A stretch of DNA of 15,862 nucleotides from Kofleriaceae bacterium (GTDB lineage Bacteria > Myxococcota_A > Polyangia > Haliangiales > Haliangiaceae), in assembly GCA_046597055.1 (NCBI GenBank), contig JBKJLC010000009.1, positions 1 to 15,862 on the forward strand, read 5' to 3'. The position numbers and the translations under genes are program-made. This document shows, piece by piece, positions 232-13,424 of the stretch. The notes beneath the pieces are model-generated. The model ran no database searches. It saw nothing but the letters and a program-made list of their open reading frames with translations, and was not told where the DNA came from. The number at the start of each line of letters is the position of its first letter. Position 1 is the first letter of the stretch.

Positions 232-1815
232 GTGGTCACCACCGCTGCCGCCACCGCCACCCCGGCGCTGTGGACCTCGCTCGAGTCGACCGCCAGCGCG
301 ATGCGGCTCGCCTTCCGCAGCGCGGACCCGGCCACGGTCGAGATCCTCATCCTCCGGATGGACCGGCTGGTGTGGACGACGGTCGGGACGCTGCCGGCGC
401 GGACCGGCGCCGGCACCACCTCGAAGTTCGTCGACCGGGATCTCGATCTCGAGCAGCGCTACTGTTACCGGGTGCGCGTCCACGGCGCCACCGCCTCGGC
501 GATCACCTTCGAGACCTGCGGGACGACCACGCCGTTCTTCGTGACCGAGCCGGAGATCGACGACGTCGCGCCCGCGATCGTGACCATCACCCATCCCGAG
601 CCGGGCACGCTGGTGGTGGCGTGGCTCGACCTGCGCGTGGGTGAGCGCGAATGGTCGGTGTCGCTGTTCGACGGCCTGGCGGCCAGCCCGCTGCACACCC
701 GGCGCGTGACCGACAGCCGACCCGAGCCGTCGATCCGCCAGGCGAGCCGCTGGCAGGACCTCGATCCGGCGAAGCTGTACTGCTTCCAGGTCACCCGCCG
801 CGGGCGCGGGTCGAACCGCCTGTGCGCGTCACCGGTGGCGGCGCGCACAGGCGCGGATCAGCGGGATCCGCGGCCCGAGGTGACGCCCAGCATCGGCCCG
901 ATCACCGCCGAGAACGGCGCGCTGCGCCTGGCCATCACGAACCCGCAGCCCGGTCAGGTGCTCGAGCAGGTGACCGCCAGCACCCTGGTCCGCCGCACGC
1001 TCGCGGTCGACGCCAGCGGCGCCAGCACGCTGACGAGCGCGGACCTGACCCCCGGCCAGACCTACTGCTACCGCCTGCTGGCCCGCACGCTGTGGGGCTC
1101 GCGGTACTCCGACCTGCAGTGCGCGACCACCACGACCGCGCTGCCCGGGCGGCCGAGCAACCTGCGCGTCACCGACCTGACCGCGACCCGGGTCGCGCTC
1201 GACTGGGACAGCGCCTCGAACGCCGACAGCTACGAGGTCGCGTACGCTGGCCGACGGACGTCGTATCAGGACGACGACGGTGCCCTGGGCTCGACCTCGT
1301 CGAGCATCACCTTCACCGCCAGCAGCGATGGCTTCGGTGGCTACGAGGGCTACTCGTATTGCTTCAAGGTCCGCGCCAAGAACCAGTTCGGCGTGTCCGG
1401 CTGGACCAGCGAGCTGTGTGATGTCCGGTTCGCGGACGACGGCCTCACCTGGTACCCCACGTTCCTGACCTTCGATCCGCCGCCGACGGGCGAGACCCAG
1501 GTGGTGTACACCCGCCTGGTCAGCCCGGGCGGCAGCCCGGCGGCGCGGCTGGTGTCGGTCGCGGTCGCCGGCAACGGAGCCATCCCGTTCACGGTGCGGT
1601 TCCTCCCGCCGGGGTCGACCCGCGCGGACTGCATCGACGTGACCAGGGGCGTGTCGATCGCGCAGGGTGGCACCCTGACCGGCGGGGCGCTCGCCACGCT
1701 CTATGGCGCGGCCGAGCCGGCGCCGCCGCTCATGCTGATCGCGTGCAAGGACTGGCCGCCCGGCGATCAGGGCACGCTCAACGACATCCTGATCGAGGTC
1801 ACCTACCGCCGGTAG
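232..1815 (+). CDS. Fibronectin type III repeat protein (about 4 FN3-like domains plus a C-terminal beta-rich domain); start uncertain, possibly 5'-truncated
   Basis: Four FN3 strand E-F signatures: DLDLEQRYCYRVRV, DLDPAKLYCFQVT, DLTPGQTYCYRLLA and EGYSYCFKVRAKN. It also has a canonical FN3 start, PGRPSNLRVTDLTATRVALDWD. The track start at 22 overlaps the antisense antitoxin gene. The first starts clear of it are GTG 232 and ATG 301. Confidence 0.8.
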   Translation: MVTTAAATATPALWTSLESTASAMRLAFRSADPATVEILILRMDRLVWTTVGTLPARTGAGTTSKFVDRDLDLEQRYCYRVRVHGATASAITFETCGTTTPFFVTEPEIDDVAPAIVTITHPEPGTLVVAWLDLRVGEREWSVSLFDGLAASPLHTRRVTDSRPEPSIRQASRWQDLDPAKLYCFQVTRRGRGSNRLCASPVAARTGADQRDPRPEVTPSIGPITAENGALRLAITNPQPGQVLEQVTASTLVRRTLAVDASGASTLTSADLTPGQTYCYRLLARTLWGSRYSDLQCATTTTALPGRPSNLRVTDLTATRVALDWDSASNADSYEVAYAGRRTSYQDDDGALGSTSSSITFTASSDGFGGYEGYSYCFKVRAKNQFGVSGWTSELCDVRFADDGLTWYPTFLTFDPPPTGETQVVYTRLVSPGGSPAARLVSVAVAGNGAIPFTVRFLPPGSTRADCIDVTRGVSIAQGGTLTGGALATLYGAAEPAPPLMLIACKDWPPGDQGTLNDILIEVTYRR

Positions 1816-1844
1816 CCCCGGCGCCGGATCGCAGCGAACGACGA

Positions 1845-1860
1845 GCCTCGGATGCGAGGC
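1845..1860. terminator. Short GC hairpin between convergent genes (possible terminator or 3' stabiliser)
   Basis: GCCTCG-GATG-CGAGGC is a 6-bp perfect stem in the 72-nt gap between convergent stops at 1815 and 1888. There is no U-tract. Confidence 0.25.
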
Positions 1861-1887
1861 GGCGGTAGATGAGGCCCGCGGCCGCGG

Positions 1888-2421
1888 CTACCGGGCGGTG
1901 GCCCAGCCGTCGCCGGTCCAGTGATACGTCTCGGTGTACTGCTCGTCATCGGCGGGCGCGCGCTGCAGGGTCACCTTGCGGTCTTCGAAGGTGAACTTCT
2001 CGTCCCACTTGTCGTCGCGATCGAGGTCGACCTTGGCGCGGTTGACCTTCCGCATGCCGACGTCCTGGTAGACGTTGACCTTCCAGCTGCGGCCCTTGCT
2101 GGCGTCCTTCAGCTTGTCGCCGCTGATCTTCTGGTCGCGCCAGGCGATGACCTCGCGGTCGTAGGCGCGGGCGGGCAGGTCGGCGCCCGACTCGCCGATC
2201 GGGTTGGCCACCGGGGCGCTGCCGCCGGGCGTCGGCGTCGGCGCGGACGGGATCACCGGCGCCGGGCGCACGTCGGTGGTGTCGCGGGCGGGCGCGGTGG
2301 CGACTGGATCGCCGCCGTCGCGGTCCTTCCCGCACGCCTGGTAGAGCCCGAAGCCGGCGAGCCCGGCGCTGGCGAACGCGAGCACGAGGAACATCCGCAA
2401 CCGCATCCGCCCTGCCATCAT
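1888..2421 (-). CDS. Membrane-anchored or exported hypothetical protein (177 aa), last gene of the radical SAM operon
   Basis: ATG 2421 overlaps the upstream TGA (TGATG), with a strong SD GAGGAGGTG at 2435-2427. The protein has a basic N-terminus plus hydrophobic helix (MRLRMFLVLAFASAGLAGFGLYQAC), a Pro/Thr linker, then a charged beta-rich domain containing DLDRDDKWDE. Confidence 0.8.
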   Translation of the reverse strand: MMAGRMRLRMFLVLAFASAGLAGFGLYQACGKDRDGGDPVATAPARDTTDVRPAPVIPSAPTPTPGGSAPVANPIGESGADLPARAYDREVIAWRDQKISGDKLKDASKGRSWKVNVYQDVGMRKVNRAKVDLDRDDKWDEKFTFEDRKVTLQRAPADDEQYTETYHWTGDGWATAR

Positions 2422-3275
2422 CAGCGCACCTCCTCGGCCCGGGGGCCGACCTCGACCATGCCGCGCTGCTGCGGCACGGTGCAGTTGCAGTAATCGTACT
2501 GGCACGGGGTCGCCGCGGCCATGAGCCGGAAGCTGCCGTCGAGCAGGTTGCCGAGCGGCTGGCGGCGGTGACGGCGCGCCGGATAGCAACGAAAGGCGTC
2601 GCCGCGGTGATCGACGATGAAGTAGCGGGCCCCGGCCCAGCACGGCCGGCCGGCGAACGACGGCGCGATCGACCCGGTGCCGTTGTGGCCGCCGAGCTGG
2701 ACCAGCTGGTCGCGCTCGTCCTCGTCGTAGTCGATCACGTCGCGGTCCGCCTTCTCGGGCTGGATCTTCAGGTCGACCCCGGCCGCCGCGTAGCTCGCGC
2801 GCAGCGCGGTCAGGCGCGGCAGGTTGGCCCGGGTCGCCACGCAGGTGACCACCACGCGGCCGGCGTGGCGCGCCTGGAGCGCGCGGACCTTGGCCAGCAG
2901 GGCCTCGGGCGTGACGTACTCGAGGTGGAGCGAGGCCGAGATCACGCCGGGTCGCGCGCGGGTGAGCTCGGCGAACCTGGCCAGCTCGTCGGCGGGCGCC
3001 GACAGGTTGGTGACCACGCTGACCCGACGGCCGCCGGCGGCCAGCGCGCCGACCGCATCGAGGAAGTCGGGGTGACGGAACGGCTCGCCGCCCGACAGCT
3101 TGATCTCCCAGTCACCGGGCAGCGCCAGGAAGCCGGCGATGAAGCGCGGCAGATCGCGCGCCCACTGCCCGCGATCCTCGACGAAGCGCTGCGTGCAGTA
3201 GCTGCACCGGTAGTTGCACGTGGTGTTCATGTTCCACGACGCGACGCCCTCGAGCGGGTAGCGCGGCGGGTTCAC
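2421..3275 (-). CDS. Radical SAM protein with C-terminal Cys-rich (Twitch/SPASM-like) domain, 284 aa; paralog of 3272-4138
   Basis: CNYRCSYC (Cx3Cx2C, 3218-3195), KLSGGEPF, VVTN, and a tail CWAG...GDAFRC...LGNL...CQYDYCNC. GTG start 3275 overlaps the upstream TGA (GTGA). Confidence 0.92.
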   Translation of the reverse strand: MNPPRYPLEGVASWNMNTTCNYRCSYCTQRFVEDRGQWARDLPRFIAGFLALPGDWEIKLSGGEPFRHPDFLDAVGALAAGGRRVSVVTNLSAPADELARFAELTRARPGVISASLHLEYVTPEALLAKVRALQARHAGRVVVTCVATRANLPRLTALRASYAAAGVDLKIQPEKADRDVIDYDEDERDQLVQLGGHNGTGSIAPSFAGRPCWAGARYFIVDHRGDAFRCYPARRHRRQPLGNLLDGSFRLMAAATPCQYDYCNCTVPQQRGMVEVGPRAEEVR

Positions 3276-4138
3276 TCGTCCAGCTCCGCGCCGCCGGCGA
3301 CGCCCTCGATCATGCCGCGGTTGGCGGGCACCGTGCACGGACAGATGTCGTAGCTGCACGGCAAGGGCGCGGTCGCGCGCGCGATCGCGCCGTCGAAGAC
3401 GTTGCCGAGCCGGCCGTGGCCGTGGCGCTTGGCGGTCCGGCACGACCAGACCTCGCCGTCCTTGTCGACCACCGCGTAGTCGACGCCGGCCCAGCAGGTG
3501 CGCCCGCGGTAGCTCGGCGCCACGTTGGCCTCGCGCGCGGTCGGGCGCCGGCCGATCAGCGGGATCAGCGCGTCGGGTGCCGGATAGTCGGCGACCCCGC
3601 CGCCGGTCTTGTAGAGCTGCGGGAACCAGCGCAGCCCGCGCGCCTCGATCGCGGCCTTGCCGCGGGCGGCGTCGGCCTCGCGGCCGGGCAGCACCACCTG
3701 GTTGACGACGAACGCGGTGGCCGGGTCGAGCTGGAGCGCGAGCCACTCGGCCTTGGCCGCGAACTCGTCGACAGCGACGTGCTCGAGGTGGAGCGAGGCG
3801 GAGAACACCGCGAGCCGACCGCGGGTGGCGTGGACGAAGCCCATCAGCTCGGCGCGGGTGGCCGAGAAGTTGGTGAGCACGCTGATCCGGTGCCGCGTGC
3901 GCGCCATCAGTCCGGGCACGACCAGGTCGAGGAACAGCGGGTGTGCGAACGCCTCGCCGCCCGAGCACTTGATCTCCCAGACCCCGGGCAGGCTGGCGAA
4001 GGTGGTCAGCGCCCGGTCGAGCTGGTCGCGGTGGGGGCGGCCGCGCCGGTAGCGCGCCGACTGGATGCAGTACGAGCAGTCGTAGTTGCAGGCGCCCGCG
4101 ACCTGCCACTCGATCGTCGGCGTGCGCGCGGTGGCCAT
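3272..4138 (-). CDS. Radical SAM protein with C-terminal Cys-rich (Twitch/SPASM-like) domain, 288 aa; paralog of 2421-3275
   Basis: CNYDCSYC (4090-4067), KCSGGEAF, VLTN, and a tail CWAG...GEVWSC...LGNV...CSYDICPC. The start (ATG 4138 or GTG 4141) overlaps the upstream TGA. Confidence 0.92.
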   Translation of the reverse strand: MATARTPTIEWQVAGACNYDCSYCIQSARYRRGRPHRDQLDRALTTFASLPGVWEIKCSGGEAFAHPLFLDLVVPGLMARTRHRISVLTNFSATRAELMGFVHATRGRLAVFSASLHLEHVAVDEFAAKAEWLALQLDPATAFVVNQVVLPGREADAARGKAAIEARGLRWFPQLYKTGGGVADYPAPDALIPLIGRRPTAREANVAPSYRGRTCWAGVDYAVVDKDGEVWSCRTAKRHGHGRLGNVFDGAIARATAPLPCSYDICPCTVPANRGMIEGVAGGAELDE

Positions 4139-5307
4139 CACCGCTCCATCGCCGCGAGATCGGCGTCGTCGACGTCGGCCGCGCCGGGGCCGCCGCGACC
4201 GTCGACCACCGCGAGCCGCACCCGCGCGCCGCCGCCGATCACGGCACGCCACGCGAGGTCGCCGTAGCGCTCGCGGAAGCGCGCGCTCCACGCGGCGTTC
4301 TGCTCGAGCTTGCCGCAGCGGTGACAGCCAGGGAACCAGTCGCCGCGACGCAGGCGCGTGCGCAGCTGGTGCCACGCGTCGCCCTGCCACAGCGCCGCGA
4401 AGGTGGTGCCGTGCAGCGAGCCGACCCGGACCTCGGTGTTGCAGCAGTAGAGGACGTCATGATCCACCGTGATCCGGGTGTAGACATGGCCCATGAAGCA
4501 GCCGATCTCGCCGATCGGCACGGTGGCGCGCAGGTCGCCCCGGGCGGCGCCGACCTGACGCTCGAACAGGTCGAGGTTGGTCGCGACCCCGAGCTCGGCG
4601 GCGACCGCGCGCGCCCGCGGGATCGCCGCGGCGAGCAGCTGGTCGCGCTGCTCGGGGGTGATGCTGCACTGCTCGGTGCCGCGGGCCAGGCTGGCCAGCT
4701 TGAAGTTGATGCGCGCCGCGTGAAACGTGCGTCCGAACCGGACCATCGCCTCGAGCTCGTGGGCGTTGTCGCGCTGGATCACGTGGACGTGGCGGACCGC
4801 GGTGCCGGTGCCGTGCAGGCGGCGCAGCCCCTTGCACATCGTGAAGAACTCGCGCTCGTCCCAGCCCGGGTGAAAGGCGGCGTAGGTGTCGGGGGTCGCG
4901 CCGTGGATGCCGACCAGCAGGTCGTCGACGCCGGCGACCGCCAGCCGGTCGAGGTCGGCGGCGATCAGGTTCGACAGCACGGTCAGCCGCCAGCCCTGGG
5001 CCTTGACCCGCGCCATCATCGTGTACGCGTCGGGGTGGACCAGCGGGTCGCCCATGCCCGACAGCACGAACCCGCGCACCGAGCCCATCGCGGCCAGCTC
5101 GTCGACCAGCCGCTCGAAGTCGGCCAGCGCGAACGAGCGGCGCTTCCAGCTCACCGGCCGCGGCTCGTCGAGCAGCGGCGAGTGATCCCAGCAGGTCACG
5201 CACGCCGCGTTGCACGCGTTGGTGATGTCGACGTGCACGGTCTCGGGCCCGGCCCCGGGCGCGCCGGTGCGGATCGCCTCGAGCCGGGCGTCGCGGTCGC
5301 CGCTCAC
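4138..5307 (-). CDS. Radical SAM / SPASM-Twitch domain protein, 389 aa
   Basis: DITNACNAACVTCWDHSP (Cx3Cx2C at 5214-5191), SGMGDPLVHP (GGEP-motif variant), VLSN, and C-terminal CFMG...DVLYCC...VGSL...FAALW...CHRC. GTG start 5307 overlaps the upstream TGA. Confidence 0.92.
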   Translation of the reverse strand: MSGDRDARLEAIRTGAPGAGPETVHVDITNACNAACVTCWDHSPLLDEPRPVSWKRRSFALADFERLVDELAAMGSVRGFVLSGMGDPLVHPDAYTMMARVKAQGWRLTVLSNLIAADLDRLAVAGVDDLLVGIHGATPDTYAAFHPGWDEREFFTMCKGLRRLHGTGTAVRHVHVIQRDNAHELEAMVRFGRTFHAARINFKLASLARGTEQCSITPEQRDQLLAAAIPRARAVAAELGVATNLDLFERQVGAARGDLRATVPIGEIGCFMGHVYTRITVDHDVLYCCNTEVRVGSLHGTTFAALWQGDAWHQLRTRLRRGDWFPGCHRCGKLEQNAAWSARFRERYGDLAWRAVIGGGARVRLAVVDGRGGPGAADVDDADLAAMER

Positions 5308-6938
5308 GCGTCGGCCTCGGGCCGCACGGAGGGCGCATCCCGCGCGCCGCGCCCGGCCAGGATCTCGGCCAGCCCGCGGCGCCCGGCGCCCTCGAGCCGG
5401 GCCAGATCGCGGGCGGCATCGAACAGATCGTCCTCGGCCGCGAGCCAGCTGGTGAGATCGGCCGTGAACGCCGGCAGCGGATAGCCGCGCTGCACCGGGA
5501 CCGCCCGCAGCAGCGAGACCGCGCCCATCCAGTCGCGGTAGCGGGCAAAGCCGGCGAGCAGCGCCGCGACCCCGGCGCCGAGCTCGTCGGCGGTGGCGGC
5601 CGGGAACGCGCGGCGGATCAGCGCCACGATCGTCGCGGCCTCGTCCCACGGCGCGCCGGTGGCGCGGATCGCGTCGGTCAGGCGCAGGACCCGCGCGGCC
5701 GGATCCCCGGCGGGCGCCGTGGCCGTGGCCCCGGTCAACTCGGCCAGCAGCGCGGCGTGGGCGGCGGCCTCGCCAGGCGCGTCGCCGGCGACCGCGCGGA
5801 TGACCTCCCACGTCCGGCGGTCGGACGGGGCCAGCCCGACCGTGCCGAGCCCGGCGAGCGCCGCGACCAGCTCGGGCGACAGCACGCGCGCCGCGTAGGC
5901 GACATCGGCCGGGCGCAGCACCCGCGCCAGGATCGCGGCGGCCGCCTCGCGCGCGCCGTTGCGCGGCACCAGCGATGCGGCGATCGCGCCGTCACCGGGC
6001 GCCTCGAGCAGGTCGGGCACGTCCTCGAGGCGCGCCGCGACCCGGCCGGCACCGGCGCGCGCCATCGCCTCGGCCCGCGCCCGCTGATCGTCGGCCAGCC
6101 GCGGCTGGGGCAGGAACACGGTCGGGATGCCGGCGTACATCAGCTCGGTCACGCCGTTGTAGCCGCCGGCCGACACCGCGGCGTCGACCCCCGGCAGCAG
6201 CTCGAGCGGGACGTAGCGGTCCATCCACGTGATGCCGGGGCCGCGTCGCTCCGGGCCCTGGTAGAGCGGGCCGGCGCCGACCACCACGTGCCAGCCGCGC
6301 GGGACCAGCGCGTCGACCAGCCACGGCAGCGCGTGGGGCGCGGCGTCGTCGCCCCCGCCGCCGAGCGAGACGTAGACCGCCCGGGCGCCGGTCGGGATGC
6401 CGAGCGCGGCCCGGGCCGCGGCCCGCGCCAGCAGCTCCTCGCGCTCGCGCAGCAGGATCGGCCCGACCCCGCGCTCGTCGGGGATCACCACCGCGCCGTA
6501 CAGCGGCAGGAGCGCGCGGTAGGCGTCGTCGCCCGCGATCTCGTCCTTCACCGCCCGCGCGACCAGCACCCGCTGCGGCACCATCTCGAGCACCGCCAGC
6601 AGCTCGCCGAAGCTGCCGCCCGGGAAGGTGTCGACCACCAGGACGTCGGGCGCCAGGCCGGCGATCGCGTTGACCACCCAGCCGCGCGCCACCGTGAGAT
6701 AGCGCGCCGGCTCCATGCCGGCGTCGCGCAGCATCGCCTTCGACGGCATCTTGAGCGCGGGCACGCCCTCGCGCCGGGCCAGGGTGTCGGCCTCCGACGA
6801 GGTGAGCACCCAGCACTCCGCGCGCACGCCCAGCAGCGCGGTCAGGCGCCGCACCCAGCGCAAGATCGCGAGCTGGCGCACCAGGTGACCGACCCCGCGC
6901 CCGTTGATCGCGTACGACAGCACGCGCACCGTCTTCAC
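5304..6938 (-). CDS. GT-B fold glycosyltransferase (MurG/GT28 C-terminal-like) with about 200-aa C-terminal helical extension, 544 aa
   Basis: N-terminal YAINGRGVGHLVR (GxGxGH acceptor loop), DVLVVDTFPGG, VYVSLGGGG, DAAVSAGGYNGVTE (nucleotide-sugar binding), PTVFLPQPRLADDQRARA. GTG start 6938 overlaps the upstream TGA. Confidence 0.88.
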   Translation of the reverse strand: MKTVRVLSYAINGRGVGHLVRQLAILRWVRRLTALLGVRAECWVLTSSEADTLARREGVPALKMPSKAMLRDAGMEPARYLTVARGWVVNAIAGLAPDVLVVDTFPGGSFGELLAVLEMVPQRVLVARAVKDEIAGDDAYRALLPLYGAVVIPDERGVGPILLREREELLARAAARAALGIPTGARAVYVSLGGGGDDAAPHALPWLVDALVPRGWHVVVGAGPLYQGPERRGPGITWMDRYVPLELLPGVDAAVSAGGYNGVTELMYAGIPTVFLPQPRLADDQRARAEAMARAGAGRVAARLEDVPDLLEAPGDGAIAASLVPRNGAREAAAAILARVLRPADVAYAARVLSPELVAALAGLGTVGLAPSDRRTWEVIRAVAGDAPGEAAAHAALLAELTGATATAPAGDPAARVLRLTDAIRATGAPWDEAATIVALIRRAFPAATADELGAGVAALLAGFARYRDWMGAVSLLRAVPVQRGYPLPAFTADLTSWLAAEDDLFDAARDLARLEGAGRRGLAEILAGRGARDAPSVRPEADA

Positions 6939-8212
6939 GACAGGTAGCCCCCGCCGGTCTCGACATCCTGGCGTCCAGCCATGAACGCGGCGGCGGCCGC
7001 GTCGTCGCGCGCCGACACCCCGCCGGGGTCGACGATGATCACCTCGGGGTGCTGGTCGTACCAGGCGCGGGTCCGCGCCAGCGTCCGCGGCGGCGGCTGC
7101 CGGGTCAGGTGCAGCCACCACATCGCCCAGTCGGCGTTCAGATCGAAGCCGTCGTAGTTGCGGGCCGCCACCAGCGTGTCGAGGCGCTTTTCGATCTTGT
7201 CAGCCTCCGCCAGCAGCGCCGGCGCGCGCGCGGTCAGCGGGTCGTTCAGGTCGGAGGCCGGCAGGCTGCGGCCGCGATCGATGCGACCGAGCCGGCGGTC
7301 GTACTTGGCGAGCCGCTCGGTGAAGCGCTGGATGATCGGCGGCAGCCCGACGTCGAGCAGCTCCTGCACGAAGGCACGCTTGGCCCGCGCCCCGTGCACC
7401 GGTCGCAGCGCGGCCAGCACCGCGGGCTCGCTGGCCGCCCACTGCGCGAGCAGGCCGAGATCCGCCAGCGCCAGGTGCTCGGCGAGGAAGCCCTGGGCAT
7501 CGGCCAGGTAGATCGCGTCGAGGTTGTCGCGGCGGTACACCGCGGCGTCGTGGCGGCGGACCAGGTCGTGGACCGCGTCGATCTCGGCGGTCAGCCGCGT
7601 GACCTCGGCCCGCAGCAGATCGCGGGGGGCTGCCACCTCGCGGTAGCGCGGCAGCACGTCATCGCCGAAGTCGCCGAGGTCGAGCGCGCGACAGATCCGA
7701 TCCCCGGCCGACCACAGCTTCCAGTACTCGGCGCGGTACCACGGCACGTCGAAGCTCGGCGTGTCGTAACCGAGCTCGATCAGCCGCAGGAAGCCGTCCT
7801 GGCTCTCGAACGCGTCGCACGCGCGCTGCTGCGGCGCCAGCGCGCCCTCGGCGCCGGCCAGGGCCAGGGCCAGCTCGCCACCGTCGCCGACCAGACGGGC
7901 CCGATCGACGTGGCGGGGATCGGCGCGCAGCTGCGTGACCGAGGTCTCGAGCACGTGGCGCTCGTGCTCGCGCGCGCGCAGCGGATCGCGGCGCTCGAAG
8001 CCCTTGAAGCCGGCCAGCGCCGCGGCTCGGCGCAGCGCCGCCTCGTCGAGCGACGGCAGGTAGCTCGCGGCCAGGGCCAGGGTCACCGCGCCGAGCTCGC
8101 GGTCGATCTGGGTCGCGGCCTCGCGGGCGCGCGCGGTCACCGCCAGGTACCGGGTCCGGACCGCCTCGGCGGTCTGGCGGAAGTCGAGGATCTGCTGCCG
8201 CTGGGACGCCAC
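6935..8212 (-). CDS. Hypothetical all-helical / coiled-coil protein, 425 aa, first gene of the radical SAM operon
   Basis: Long ORF with GC-rich third positions and A/L/R/E/D-rich helical composition. It contains an aromatic island LIELGYDTPSFDVPWYRAEYWKLW, and its stop overlaps the GT start. No family recognised. Confidence 0.8.
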   Translation of the reverse strand: MASQRQQILDFRQTAEAVRTRYLAVTARAREAATQIDRELGAVTLALAASYLPSLDEAALRRAAALAGFKGFERRDPLRAREHERHVLETSVTQLRADPRHVDRARLVGDGGELALALAGAEGALAPQQRACDAFESQDGFLRLIELGYDTPSFDVPWYRAEYWKLWSAGDRICRALDLGDFGDDVLPRYREVAAPRDLLRAEVTRLTAEIDAVHDLVRRHDAAVYRRDNLDAIYLADAQGFLAEHLALADLGLLAQWAASEPAVLAALRPVHGARAKRAFVQELLDVGLPPIIQRFTERLAKYDRRLGRIDRGRSLPASDLNDPLTARAPALLAEADKIEKRLDTLVAARNYDGFDLNADWAMWWLHLTRQPPPRTLARTRAWYDQHPEVIIVDPGGVSARDDAAAAAFMAGRQDVETGGGYLS

Positions 8213-8222
8213 GGCGCCGATC

Positions 8223-8225
<3 letters not shown>
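8213..8225 (-). promoter_or_regulatory. Putative -10 element of a leaderless promoter for the radical SAM operon
   Basis: TAGGAT (8225-8220) + 7 nt + GTG (8212), with no SD. The TAG doubles as the stop of the kinase fragment. Confidence 0.45.
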
Positions 8226-8666
<441 letters not shown>

Positions 8667-8884
8667 GCGAGCTGGACCACCACGCCGCGCAGCTCGACCG
8701 CGGGCGCCACCGGCCGCTCGGGTCGGTCGAGCGCCGCCTCCAGCAGCAGCGTGAAGCCACCGGCCTCGTCGGCGAGGTCGGCCTCCGCGTGCGTCTGCGC
8801 GACCGCGAGCCGTCCGGCTTCGGCCGCAGAGATACCGTCGGCGACCATCACGGCCGCCGCCACGAGCAGCAGTCCCCCACGCAT
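8667..8884 (-). pseudogene. N-terminal fragment of a probable exported or membrane protein, cut off at the junction with the kinase fragment
   Basis: ATG 8884 gives MRGGLLLVAAAVMVADGISAAEAGRLAV...ELRGVVVQLA, with a hydrophobic signal-like start and coding-type codon usage to 8667. After that it only shadows the kinase frame until the stop at 8597. Confidence 0.55.
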
Positions 8885-8896
8885 CGCTCGATGGTA
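8885..8896 (-). promoter_or_regulatory. Putative -10 element of a leaderless promoter
   Basis: TACCAT (8896-8891) + 6 nt + ATG (8884), with no SD. Confidence 0.45.
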
Positions 8897-8931
8897 CCCG
8901 TGGACGCGCCCGGGCGGGCGCCGCCGGCGCG

Positions 8932-9354
8932 CTACTTGACCGGCTTGGCCGGCTCGGCCCTGGGGCCGGACGGCGGCGGCGTGGTGACCGGCTTGCCCGC
9001 GACCACGCCCTCCATGAAGGAGCGGCCTTCGAAGATCACGCCCTTCTCGATCTGCAGCGACGGCGTGTGCAGGTCGCCCTTGACCCGCCCCGGCGCCAGC
9101 ACCTCGATGCTGCGCTTGGCGCGGATGTTCCCGACCACGGTGCCCTGGATGATCACCTCACCGATGTCGATCTCGGCCTCCACGTAGGCGCCCTCGCCGA
9201 TGATGAGGATGTCGTCGGAGAACACCTCGCCCTTGAGCTTGCCGTCCACGCGGACGGTGCCCTCGAAGGTGAGCTTGCCCTCGAACGCGGTGCCGCGACC
9301 GAGGAGCGTGTTGATCTCGCTGACGATGCCTTCGCGCCGAGCCGGTGCCGTCAT
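8932..9354 (-). CDS. bacM: Bactofilin (polymer-forming cytoskeletal protein, BacM-like), 140 aa
   Basis: EINTLLGRGTAFEGKLTFEGTVRVDGKLKGEV...LIIGEGAYVEAEI...VIIQGTVVGNIRA...GRVKGDLHTPSLQIEKGVIFEG is the bactofilin beta-helix. With the Pro-rich C-tail it closely resembles Myxococcus BacM, as recalled. Confidence 0.93.
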   Translation of the reverse strand: MTAPARREGIVSEINTLLGRGTAFEGKLTFEGTVRVDGKLKGEVFSDDILIIGEGAYVEAEIDIGEVIIQGTVVGNIRAKRSIEVLAPGRVKGDLHTPSLQIEKGVIFEGRSFMEGVVAGKPVTTPPPSGPRAEPAKPVK

Positions 9355-9367
9355 GAACCGGACGCTA
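9355..9367 (-). promoter_or_regulatory. Putative -10 element of a leaderless promoter for bactofilin
   Basis: TAGCGT (9367-9362) + 7 nt + ATG (9354), filling the whole 13-nt intergenic gap; no SD. Confidence 0.35.
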
Positions 9368-12346
<2,979 letters not shown>

Positions 12347-12353
12347 GGCGCGG

Positions 12354-13424
<1,071 letters not shown>

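Follow-up and report, generated by a model that had tools for sequence, protein, structure and literature searches.

A conserved six-gene cassette in a Kofleriaceae bacterium links a GT1-like glycosyltransferase and three radical SAM genes to a protein with an invariant C-terminal serine

The 15,862-base stretch of DNA analysed here, called the window throughout, is the whole of contig JBKJLC010000009.1 from a Kofleriaceae bacterium (GenBank assembly GCA_046597055.1), whose genome has 72% GC and is spread over 303 contigs. The window carries a block of six minus-strand genes. In gene order these encode protein A (6935..8212; 425 amino acids, aa), a glycosyltransferase, GT (5304..6938; 544 aa), three radical S-adenosylmethionine (SAM) enzymes, R1 (4138..5307; 389 aa), R2 (3272..4141, start 4138 or 4141; 288 aa from ATG) and R3 (2421..3275; 284 aa), and protein M (1888..2421; 177 aa). 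All five junctions are stop/start overlaps (GTGA, GTGA, GTGATG, GTGA and TGATG), so that no peptide gene could fit between the genes of the block. The open reading frames (ORFs), the overlaps and the paralogy of R2 and R3 (43% identical over 270 aa) are as described in an earlier note on this DNA, made from the sequence alone. The GC content at third codon positions is 0.94–0.98 across all six genes, and each is single-copy in the genome, the R2/R3 pair excepted.

The six genes are one real conserved cassette that travels together. Among 79 loci found with R3 as the query, many of them on short contigs, R2 was present in 72, M in 71, R1 in 63, GT in 54 and A in 47. The order A-GT-R1-R2-R3-M was complete by tblastn in 41 of the 51 loci whose sequence extends at least 5.2 kb upstream and at least 0.7 kb downstream, a few of them with inserted genes; of the remaining ten, three have A by profile (L056, L073 and L087), one lacks M and six are partial. 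Junctions overlap in 27/41, 34/40, 33/39, 37/40 and 20/40 relatives, in gene order, these being upper estimates since the rule used for picking starts favoured overlaps. A set found with R3 is biased toward R3, and co-occurrence was therefore retested by separate whole-genome searches with GT, an A alignment and an R3 alignment. All three hit the identical 7 of 61 genomes, the genome of the window included, and none had a match in 16 same-genus genomes. Starting from GT instead, R1, two R2/R3 genes and M were found in 30 of the 36 loci where A is the partner and the sequence reaches at least 4.3 kb downstream. The synteny that the earlier note had left to be checked across genomes is thus present.

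The nearest relatives of R3 are from Kofleriaceae and other Myxococcota, and the cultured Enhygromyxa salina DSM 15201 has the entire block (L062). A search of the window's own phylum with the GT alignment gave matches in 35 of 401 genomes at E≤1e-25, two of these being weak outgroup matches. At the thresholds used no relative of GT was found in viral contigs or plasmids, and none of R3 in phages. Among the recurring neighbours of the cassette loci (flanking ORFs of at least 70 aa clustered) there is no precursor peptide, transporter or pathway gene, as had been noted for the block itself, and no protease, exporter or lipid-pathway gene; the sole recurring family outside the cassette is that of kinases, at varying places. 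In some loci with an Asp-type ending of A, a gene of 117–142 aa is coupled ahead of A (L062:4397-4750, L132:3123-3542, L239:2-430 and L242:3338-3751). It has no Pfam match in the three cases examined and is absent from the window. No published description of the cassette was found in titles and abstract openings of open-access papers; the earlier note had not recognised the architecture as a characterised cluster either.

Protein A has no Pfam or NCBIfam match, and its homologs gave scattered NCBIfam matches, with at most 3 of 48 members for any one family. The AlphaFold2 model (mean predicted local distance difference test, pLDDT, of 93.8) predicts an all-helical coiled-coil body followed by a low-confidence, likely disordered tail, where pLDDT drops to between 63 and 42 over about residues 391–425; Ala and Asp are abundant among the last 30 residues. 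The protein is predicted to be soluble, as none of 48 homologs has a hydrophobic 19-mer scoring at least 1.8. Foldseek found no match for the model at E≤0.001. The best VIA Z was 9.8 (root-mean-square deviation, rmsd, 2.2 over 110 aligned residues), which is in the range of generic helical bundles and is no proof of a new fold, and in the ESM Atlas all matches of A are to unnamed clusters.

The main clue to the cassette, which the earlier note missed, is the last residue of protein A. The last three codons (6938..6946, minus strand) encode Tyr-Leu-Ser, an instance of a [D/E/Y]-x-Ser-COOH tag. All 45 complete A homologs end in Ser, and 43 of them in [DEY]xS. The same ending is seen in 1/51, 0/60, 0/68, 2/75 and 0/69 homologs of the five other cassette genes (3/323 in total), and among 5,662 ORFs of the same genome, called by a simple GC-frame rule, 444 (7.8%) end in S and 42 (0.74%) in [DEY]xS. 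Five codons are used for the terminal Ser in the 45 homologs (TCG 25, AGC 7, TCA 5, TCC 4 and TCT 4), and the ending is kept where A lies 1.2–5.1 kb away from GT (L031, L035 and L044), which argues that the serine is selected at the protein level. The stop/start overlap was considered as the cause of the serine and rejected, as it constrains no more than the third base of the codon, and AGC or TCC is used in 11 of the 45 homologs.

In the wider set of A-type partners of GT described below, 97 of 97 end in Ser or Thr. The single substitution is a Thr (L173), which keeps the hydroxyl and would fit a link through it. When the residue at position −3 was mapped on a FastTree tree of 133 GTs, Tyr was confined to one clade of 44 GTs that includes the window (support 0.912), and Asp was found nearly everywhere else. 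Position −3 has thus switched from Asp to Tyr in one clade while the radical SAM genes were retained, which leaves the terminal residue alone as fixed.

GT consists of a GT1-like GT-B domain (residues 1–343) and a helical extension (about residues 344–533). Its model (pLDDT 92.5) has the two-Rossmann GT-B fold, and residues 1–343 superpose on CalG1, GtfA, YojK, YjiC and a sterol glucosyltransferase with Z of 23–25 (CalG1: Z 24.8, rmsd 3.8, 318 aligned; GtfA: Z 24.8, rmsd 3.9, 319 aligned). His18 in a GxGH loop, Glu265, Asp283 and Gln285 are invariant in 46 homologs, as are the basic N-domain residues R21, R31, K63, K67 and R128. By analogy with the mechanism of GT1 enzymes and MurG, His18 would be the base, and Glu265, Asp283 and Gln285 would be contacts of the nucleotide-sugar. 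The modelled GT-B fold together with an N-terminal His and a C-domain Glu and Asp-Gln would place the enzyme in the GT1 type. Pfam assigns GT28_C, EryCIII-like and UDPGT domains over the 46 homologs, with the GT of the window itself below the cut-offs (PF06722 21.8 vs 31.7; PF04101 20.5 vs 22). A complex prediction for GT 1–350 with A 376–425 gave a score of 0.01 and a mark of 0.32 and was used neither for nor against an interaction.

Homologs of GT were also gathered without reference to A or to the radical SAM enzymes, one of the searches giving the best 80 of 328 matches. Dereplication at 90% identity left 102 GTs of at least 240 bits, 98 of them with at least 400 nt upstream. A partner was assigned to each by family profile or, failing that, the longest ORF with its end close to the start of GT was taken; the nature of the ending was not used. 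Of these partners 85/98 end in Ser or Thr and 82/98 in [DEY]x[ST].

The partners include proteins other than close homologs of A. A distant A subfamily, related to A with an hhalign probability of 99.9, is encoded downstream of GT and has the tag in 5 of 6 members. A family with tetratricopeptide repeats (TPR), an N-terminal hydrophobic leader and a membrane segment ends in D-x-S in 5 of 5 members, and a 196-aa protein ends in D-V-S; neither is homologous to A (hhalign probabilities of 0.5 and 0.06). The same type of ending thus recurs on unrelated partners. An alignment of short-form GTs was searched against three further phyla, and matches were obtained in 11/301 (Pirellulaceae phylum), 5/301 (Acidobacteria phylum) and 6/251 genomes (Anaerolineae phylum), centre genomes included, with four matches in the first set and five in the last under 170 bits and counted as weak outgroup.

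None of R1–R3 was detected beside GT and the tail at any of the 6 distant-A loci, three of which extend more than 6 kb to either side, or at 4 of the 5 TPR-family loci. L248 and L249 have R1 alone in addition to GT and the tail, and L168 has R1 and one R2/R3 gene. Several lineages thus keep GT and the tail by themselves; GT would be the core and the radical SAM enzymes the add-ons, a picture of one core reaction to which tailoring may be added. A natural fusion of GT and R1 (913 aa) is present in three records.

Several of these loci have features of their own. A TerB-domain gene, GT and a distant A homolog ending in D-E-S or D-A-S stand together, with no radical SAM genes, at L243:1389-5022 and L244:5237-8984. 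The distant A homolog lies behind GT at L198, L201 and L204, and likewise at L200, but there it ends in Met. TPR-family proteins ending in D-Q/R/H-S directly precede a short GT at L158:5004-6821, L180:5133-6959, L184, L185 and L168:5730-6986, and have a conserved CxFC-containing region after the membrane segment. L205:8106-13500 encodes the 196-aa protein, a short GT and then a protein of 1,235 aa in which a GT28_C-type GT, a GT4 and a radical SAM/SPASM domain are fused.

The CxxxCxxC motif and five C-terminal cysteines are invariant among the aligned homologs of R1 (43/43), R2 (37/37) and R3 (35/35). In R1, with a Twitch-type C-terminus, the latter are C270, C288, C289, C328 and C331; in R2, of which R3 is a paralogue, they are C215, C233 and a CX4CXC motif at 261, 266 and 268. 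By these residues all three are predicted SPASM/Twitch enzymes with cysteines for one auxiliary cluster. The assignment of R1 to this class by the earlier note holds, and since the five cysteines are invariant in R2 and R3 too, such cysteines are not limited to R1. The Pfam matches of R1 are above cut-off (PF04055 52.2 bits; PF13186 28.6 bits), and PF13186 is below cut-off for R2 and R3. The best solved relatives of R1 by profile are BlsE (3e-8), PqqE (3e-7) and the C-terminal part of BtrN (1e-6); R2 and R3 match YydG, PqqE and viperin-like enzymes best, and only across the shared core. No radical SAM enzyme of the window reaches the cut-off of any curated NCBIfam family. For NF038073 (STM4011-like; cut-off 200) R3 scored 67.8 and R2 43.8 bits, and 66.9 and 41.1 in the genome search; for TIGR03962 (MftC; cut-off 265) R1, R2 and R3 scored 37.1, 20.1 and 17.5 bits; for the BlsE model (cut-off 400) R1 scored 33.2 bits. 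Such weak matches do not fix the substrate, and the genomic context appears to say more.

M has an N-terminal hydrophobic anchor, a Pro-rich linker and a domain of about 90 residues with a DxDxD motif. The motif is present in 34 of 34 homologs and a hydrophobic segment near residue 11 in 24 of 34. Counted by the motif, the domain occurs once in 47 of 69 homologs, twice in 20, three times in one and not at all in one. A basic N-terminus followed by the anchor predicts a domain facing out of the cytoplasm. This domain may bind calcium; in the ESM Atlas it gave only leads below 0.9, with EF-hand or FG-GAP labels on 10–18% of members, and the M profile gave nothing under E 0.06 against solved structures.

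On balance it is probable, though far from certain, that GT O-glycosylates the C-terminal serine of A and that the three Twitch-type enzymes remodel that sugar. Gene order, coupling and co-occurrence, the terminal Ser and its recurrence on unrelated partners, the GT1-like fold and the intact cysteines are the observations that support this at the level of sequence. The tail would be the acceptor, the linkage would be through the side-chain hydroxyl, and the substrate of the radical SAM enzymes would be the sugar. GT would take a sugar from a nucleotide-sugar and put it on the side-chain hydroxyl of the last serine. Hydrogen abstraction by R1, R2 and R3 would follow, with the sugar attached to either the protein or its nucleotide donor, and would oxidise, epimerise or rearrange it; GT first and the radical SAM enzymes second is the order that we infer. 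More tentatively, M may be an inner-membrane protein whose DxDxD domain lies outside the cytoplasm, and A and M together might equal the single-chain TPR-family membrane partner, with a role in envelope sensing or stress. Attachment of a sugar and its radical remodelling had been proposed for the block before, and the GT1-like fold and the GT-R1 fusion fit such a pathway; as to the acceptor, which had been left between a protein, a lipid and a small molecule, the evidence now favours the invariant C-terminal serine of A. Precedents exist in TfpO/TfpM, which glycosylate a C-terminal Ser/Thr (PMC9829042, in excerpt), and in BlsE, which acts on a glycoside (PMC3715490, in excerpt).

A bolder proposal is a real possibility, although we would not call it probable: a portable three-residue tag guides a soluble nucleotide-sugar transferase to cap the last serine of large unrelated proteins, and as many as three radical SAM enzymes turn the protein-bound sugar into a new moiety, the system being modular and present in several phyla. 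Radical tailoring of a sugar bound to a protein is not known to us and was not met with in the literature searched. If true, this would be a soluble single-enzyme route to glycosylate the last residue of a protein by a tag some three residues long, of use in glycoengineering, and three unstudied radical SAM families would gain a defined substrate.

Several findings weigh against glycosylation of the serine and remodelling of its sugar. The full tag is absent from 16 of the 98 GT-anchored loci. Among these, eight short GTs (L175, L177, L181, L183, L189, L196, L197 and L203) form a clade (support 0.994), sister to the TPR-partnered clade, without a Ser-ended neighbour at the locus; the distant-A protein of L200 ends in Met, and 1 of 9 outgroup GTs also has a neighbour ending in E-S-S (L246). 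The nearest solved GTs use small-molecule, sterol or lipid acceptors, not proteins. The similarities of the radical SAM enzymes are weak (E 3e-8 or worse) and mixed; the best solved match of R2 is YydG, from a peptide pathway, and that of R3 is PqqE. CX4CXC, present in R2 and R3, is the motif described for the peptide-modifying SkfB, and similarity predicts function poorly in the radical SAM subfamily of that enzyme (PMC6231123, in excerpt). Finally, the loci share descent and their counts overstate independence; the independent evidence consists of three unrelated partner bodies.

Some of these findings would suit a tail that is a docking or switch peptide, which binds GT and activates or localises it, the acceptor being a lipid or small molecule that is tailored afterwards by the radical SAM enzymes. 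This we consider rather unlikely. It would agree with the acceptors of all the close solved GTs, with the membrane location predicted for M and the TPR-family partner and with the eight short GTs that lack a Ser-ended neighbour, and the invariant R21, R31, K63, K67 and R128 of GT could hold a C-terminal carboxylate with no modification taking place. Docking needs no hydroxyl residue, however, yet the last residue is Ser or Thr in every one of the 97 A-type partners, whose positions −2 and −3 are variable, and no lipid-pathway gene recurs beside the cassette.

The tail could also be handled as in a ribosomally synthesised and post-translationally modified peptide (RiPP), with the radical SAM enzymes acting on its residues (for example by oxidative decarboxylation or epimerisation). 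The sugar would be added earlier or later than this, and a small product might be set free, as it is with mycofactocin. The SkfB-like CX4CXC of R2 and R3 and their best solved matches, YydG and PqqE, point in this direction, and in mycofactocin a radical SAM enzyme and a glycosyltransferase go together with a peptide whose C-terminal motif is conserved (PMC3023750, in excerpt). We nevertheless find it decidedly unlikely. The first cluster Cys is at residue 32, 17 and 20 of R1, R2 and R3, so near the N-terminus that there is no room for an N-terminal RiPP recognition element (RRE); no stand-alone RRE gene family recurs among the cassette neighbours, nor does a protease or exporter. The tail is variable save for its last residue, GT and the tail persist without the radical SAM genes, and the 390-residue body of A holds invariant residues of its own, unlike a disposable leader. 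An anti-phage or competition system, in which viperin-like enzymes would make modified nucleotides, had been raised as possible but unsupported, and found no positive support here. Its patchy distribution (7/61 genomes, 0/16 of the same genus) and weak matches of R3 and R2 to the viperin model NF038283 would allow it; these matches span only about the first 100 residues, the shared radical SAM core (R3 11–93, 35.9 bits; R2 8–99, 27.2 bits; cut-off 180), and PADLOC gave only such partial viperin matches, with none for A, GT or M. As it would also leave the serine tag unexplained, we regard a defence role as highly improbable.

The proposed glycosylation of the C-terminal serine of A can be compared with several known systems. 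In siderophore-microcins such as microcin E492, a GT-B enzyme takes part and a sugar-containing group is placed on a C-terminal serine. There the GT glycosylates enterobactin, the ester to the carboxylate is made by other enzymes, and a peptide is what the cell exports; genes of this kind do not recur beside the cassette. TfpO (PilO) and TfpM are similar in that the enzyme gene adjoins the substrate gene and the site is a C-terminal Ser/Thr, and differ in being enzymes with a wzy_C domain that move lipid-linked oligosaccharides to pilins (PMC9829042, PMC12645811, both in excerpt). In the cassette a neighbour ending in Ser/Thr is found (45/45; 85/98), whereas the enzyme is a GT1-like GT-B protein with nucleotide-sugar-binding residues and no wzy_C domain, the partner is a coiled-coil protein that lacks a membrane segment and is not a type IV pilin, and three radical SAM genes follow. 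Mycofactocin (MftA-F) always combines an auxiliary-cluster radical SAM enzyme with a glycosyltransferase and a ribosomal product whose C-terminal motif is conserved, but MftA is a conserved peptide of 23 residues and the glycosyltransferase is of group 2 (PMC3023750, in excerpt); the tagged protein of the cassette has 425 residues with only the last one fixed, its GT is a GT-B enzyme, and it has no radical SAM enzyme of the MftC family. BlsE and BtrN share one auxiliary-cluster C-terminus with R1, to which their similarity is weak, and act on free small molecules in antibiotic pathways (PMC3715490, PMC6231123, in excerpt). For R2 and R3 the STM4011 family (NF038073) is the best, near full-length model match, found for 35 of 35 R3 homologs, with R2 and R3 of the window below the cut-off of 200. 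STM4011 is reportedly named in a study of a Salmonella regulator. Glycosylation of a C-terminal hydroxyl by a dedicated neighbour enzyme is thus already known, and the cassette does not belong to the TfpO/TfpM, mycofactocin, STM4011 or viperin systems.

Directly ahead of A lies the remnant of a kinase gene, outside the cassette (8223..8884, minus strand), which consists of the two ends of a large Ser/Thr kinase gene with an out-of-frame joint at 8667/8668. The stop of the remnant at 8223 is spaced 10 nt from the start of A at 8212, and a sigma-70 promoter scan of 1500–9500, covering this factor only, gave 0 sites (0.1 expected); the separate promoter once proposed for the block is therefore unsupported. 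In same-genus relatives the kinase has 1,250–1,310 aa and both its ends match the flanks of the joint; the gene of the window has lost about 3.1 kb internally, which put the remaining ends out of frame. A chimeric assembly at this point was rejected on the ground of contigs of sequencing runs X1 and X3, possibly the source samples, which span the joint without differences, and one run contig, possibly from a source sample too, covers 5857–8653 and links the remnant to A and GT. The kinase was rejected as a seventh member, with a match in just 10 of 79 loci at varying position. Different genes follow the kinase in the four relatives in which the region beyond it was fetched (L266, L268, L269 and L270), which together with the absence of GT, A and R3 from the 16 same-genus genomes places the cassette at a variable site.

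The rest of the window holds a convergent plus-strand gene with fibronectin type III domains (22–1815), which is not among the recurring neighbours, and at 8932–13870 genes for a bactofilin, for a large Ser/Thr kinase in which PTGQVPT(V/L)R units are repeated, for a weakly HATPase_c-like protein and for a response regulator; the kinase and bactofilin portion is syntenic in same-genus relatives. Contigs C7 and C291 carry two copies, at 88% identity, of the long gene at the contig end (13884–15862), which is TonB-dependent-receptor-like by eye. The last 115 bases of the window are exactly the first 115 of both these contigs, so the assembly breaks in a repeated gene. In the same-genus genome L268, positions 12446–13400 carry three small tandem ORFs, two of which start with a sequence like QITDA(V/I)TQTNVK that presumably resembles the Reb (R-body) proteins.

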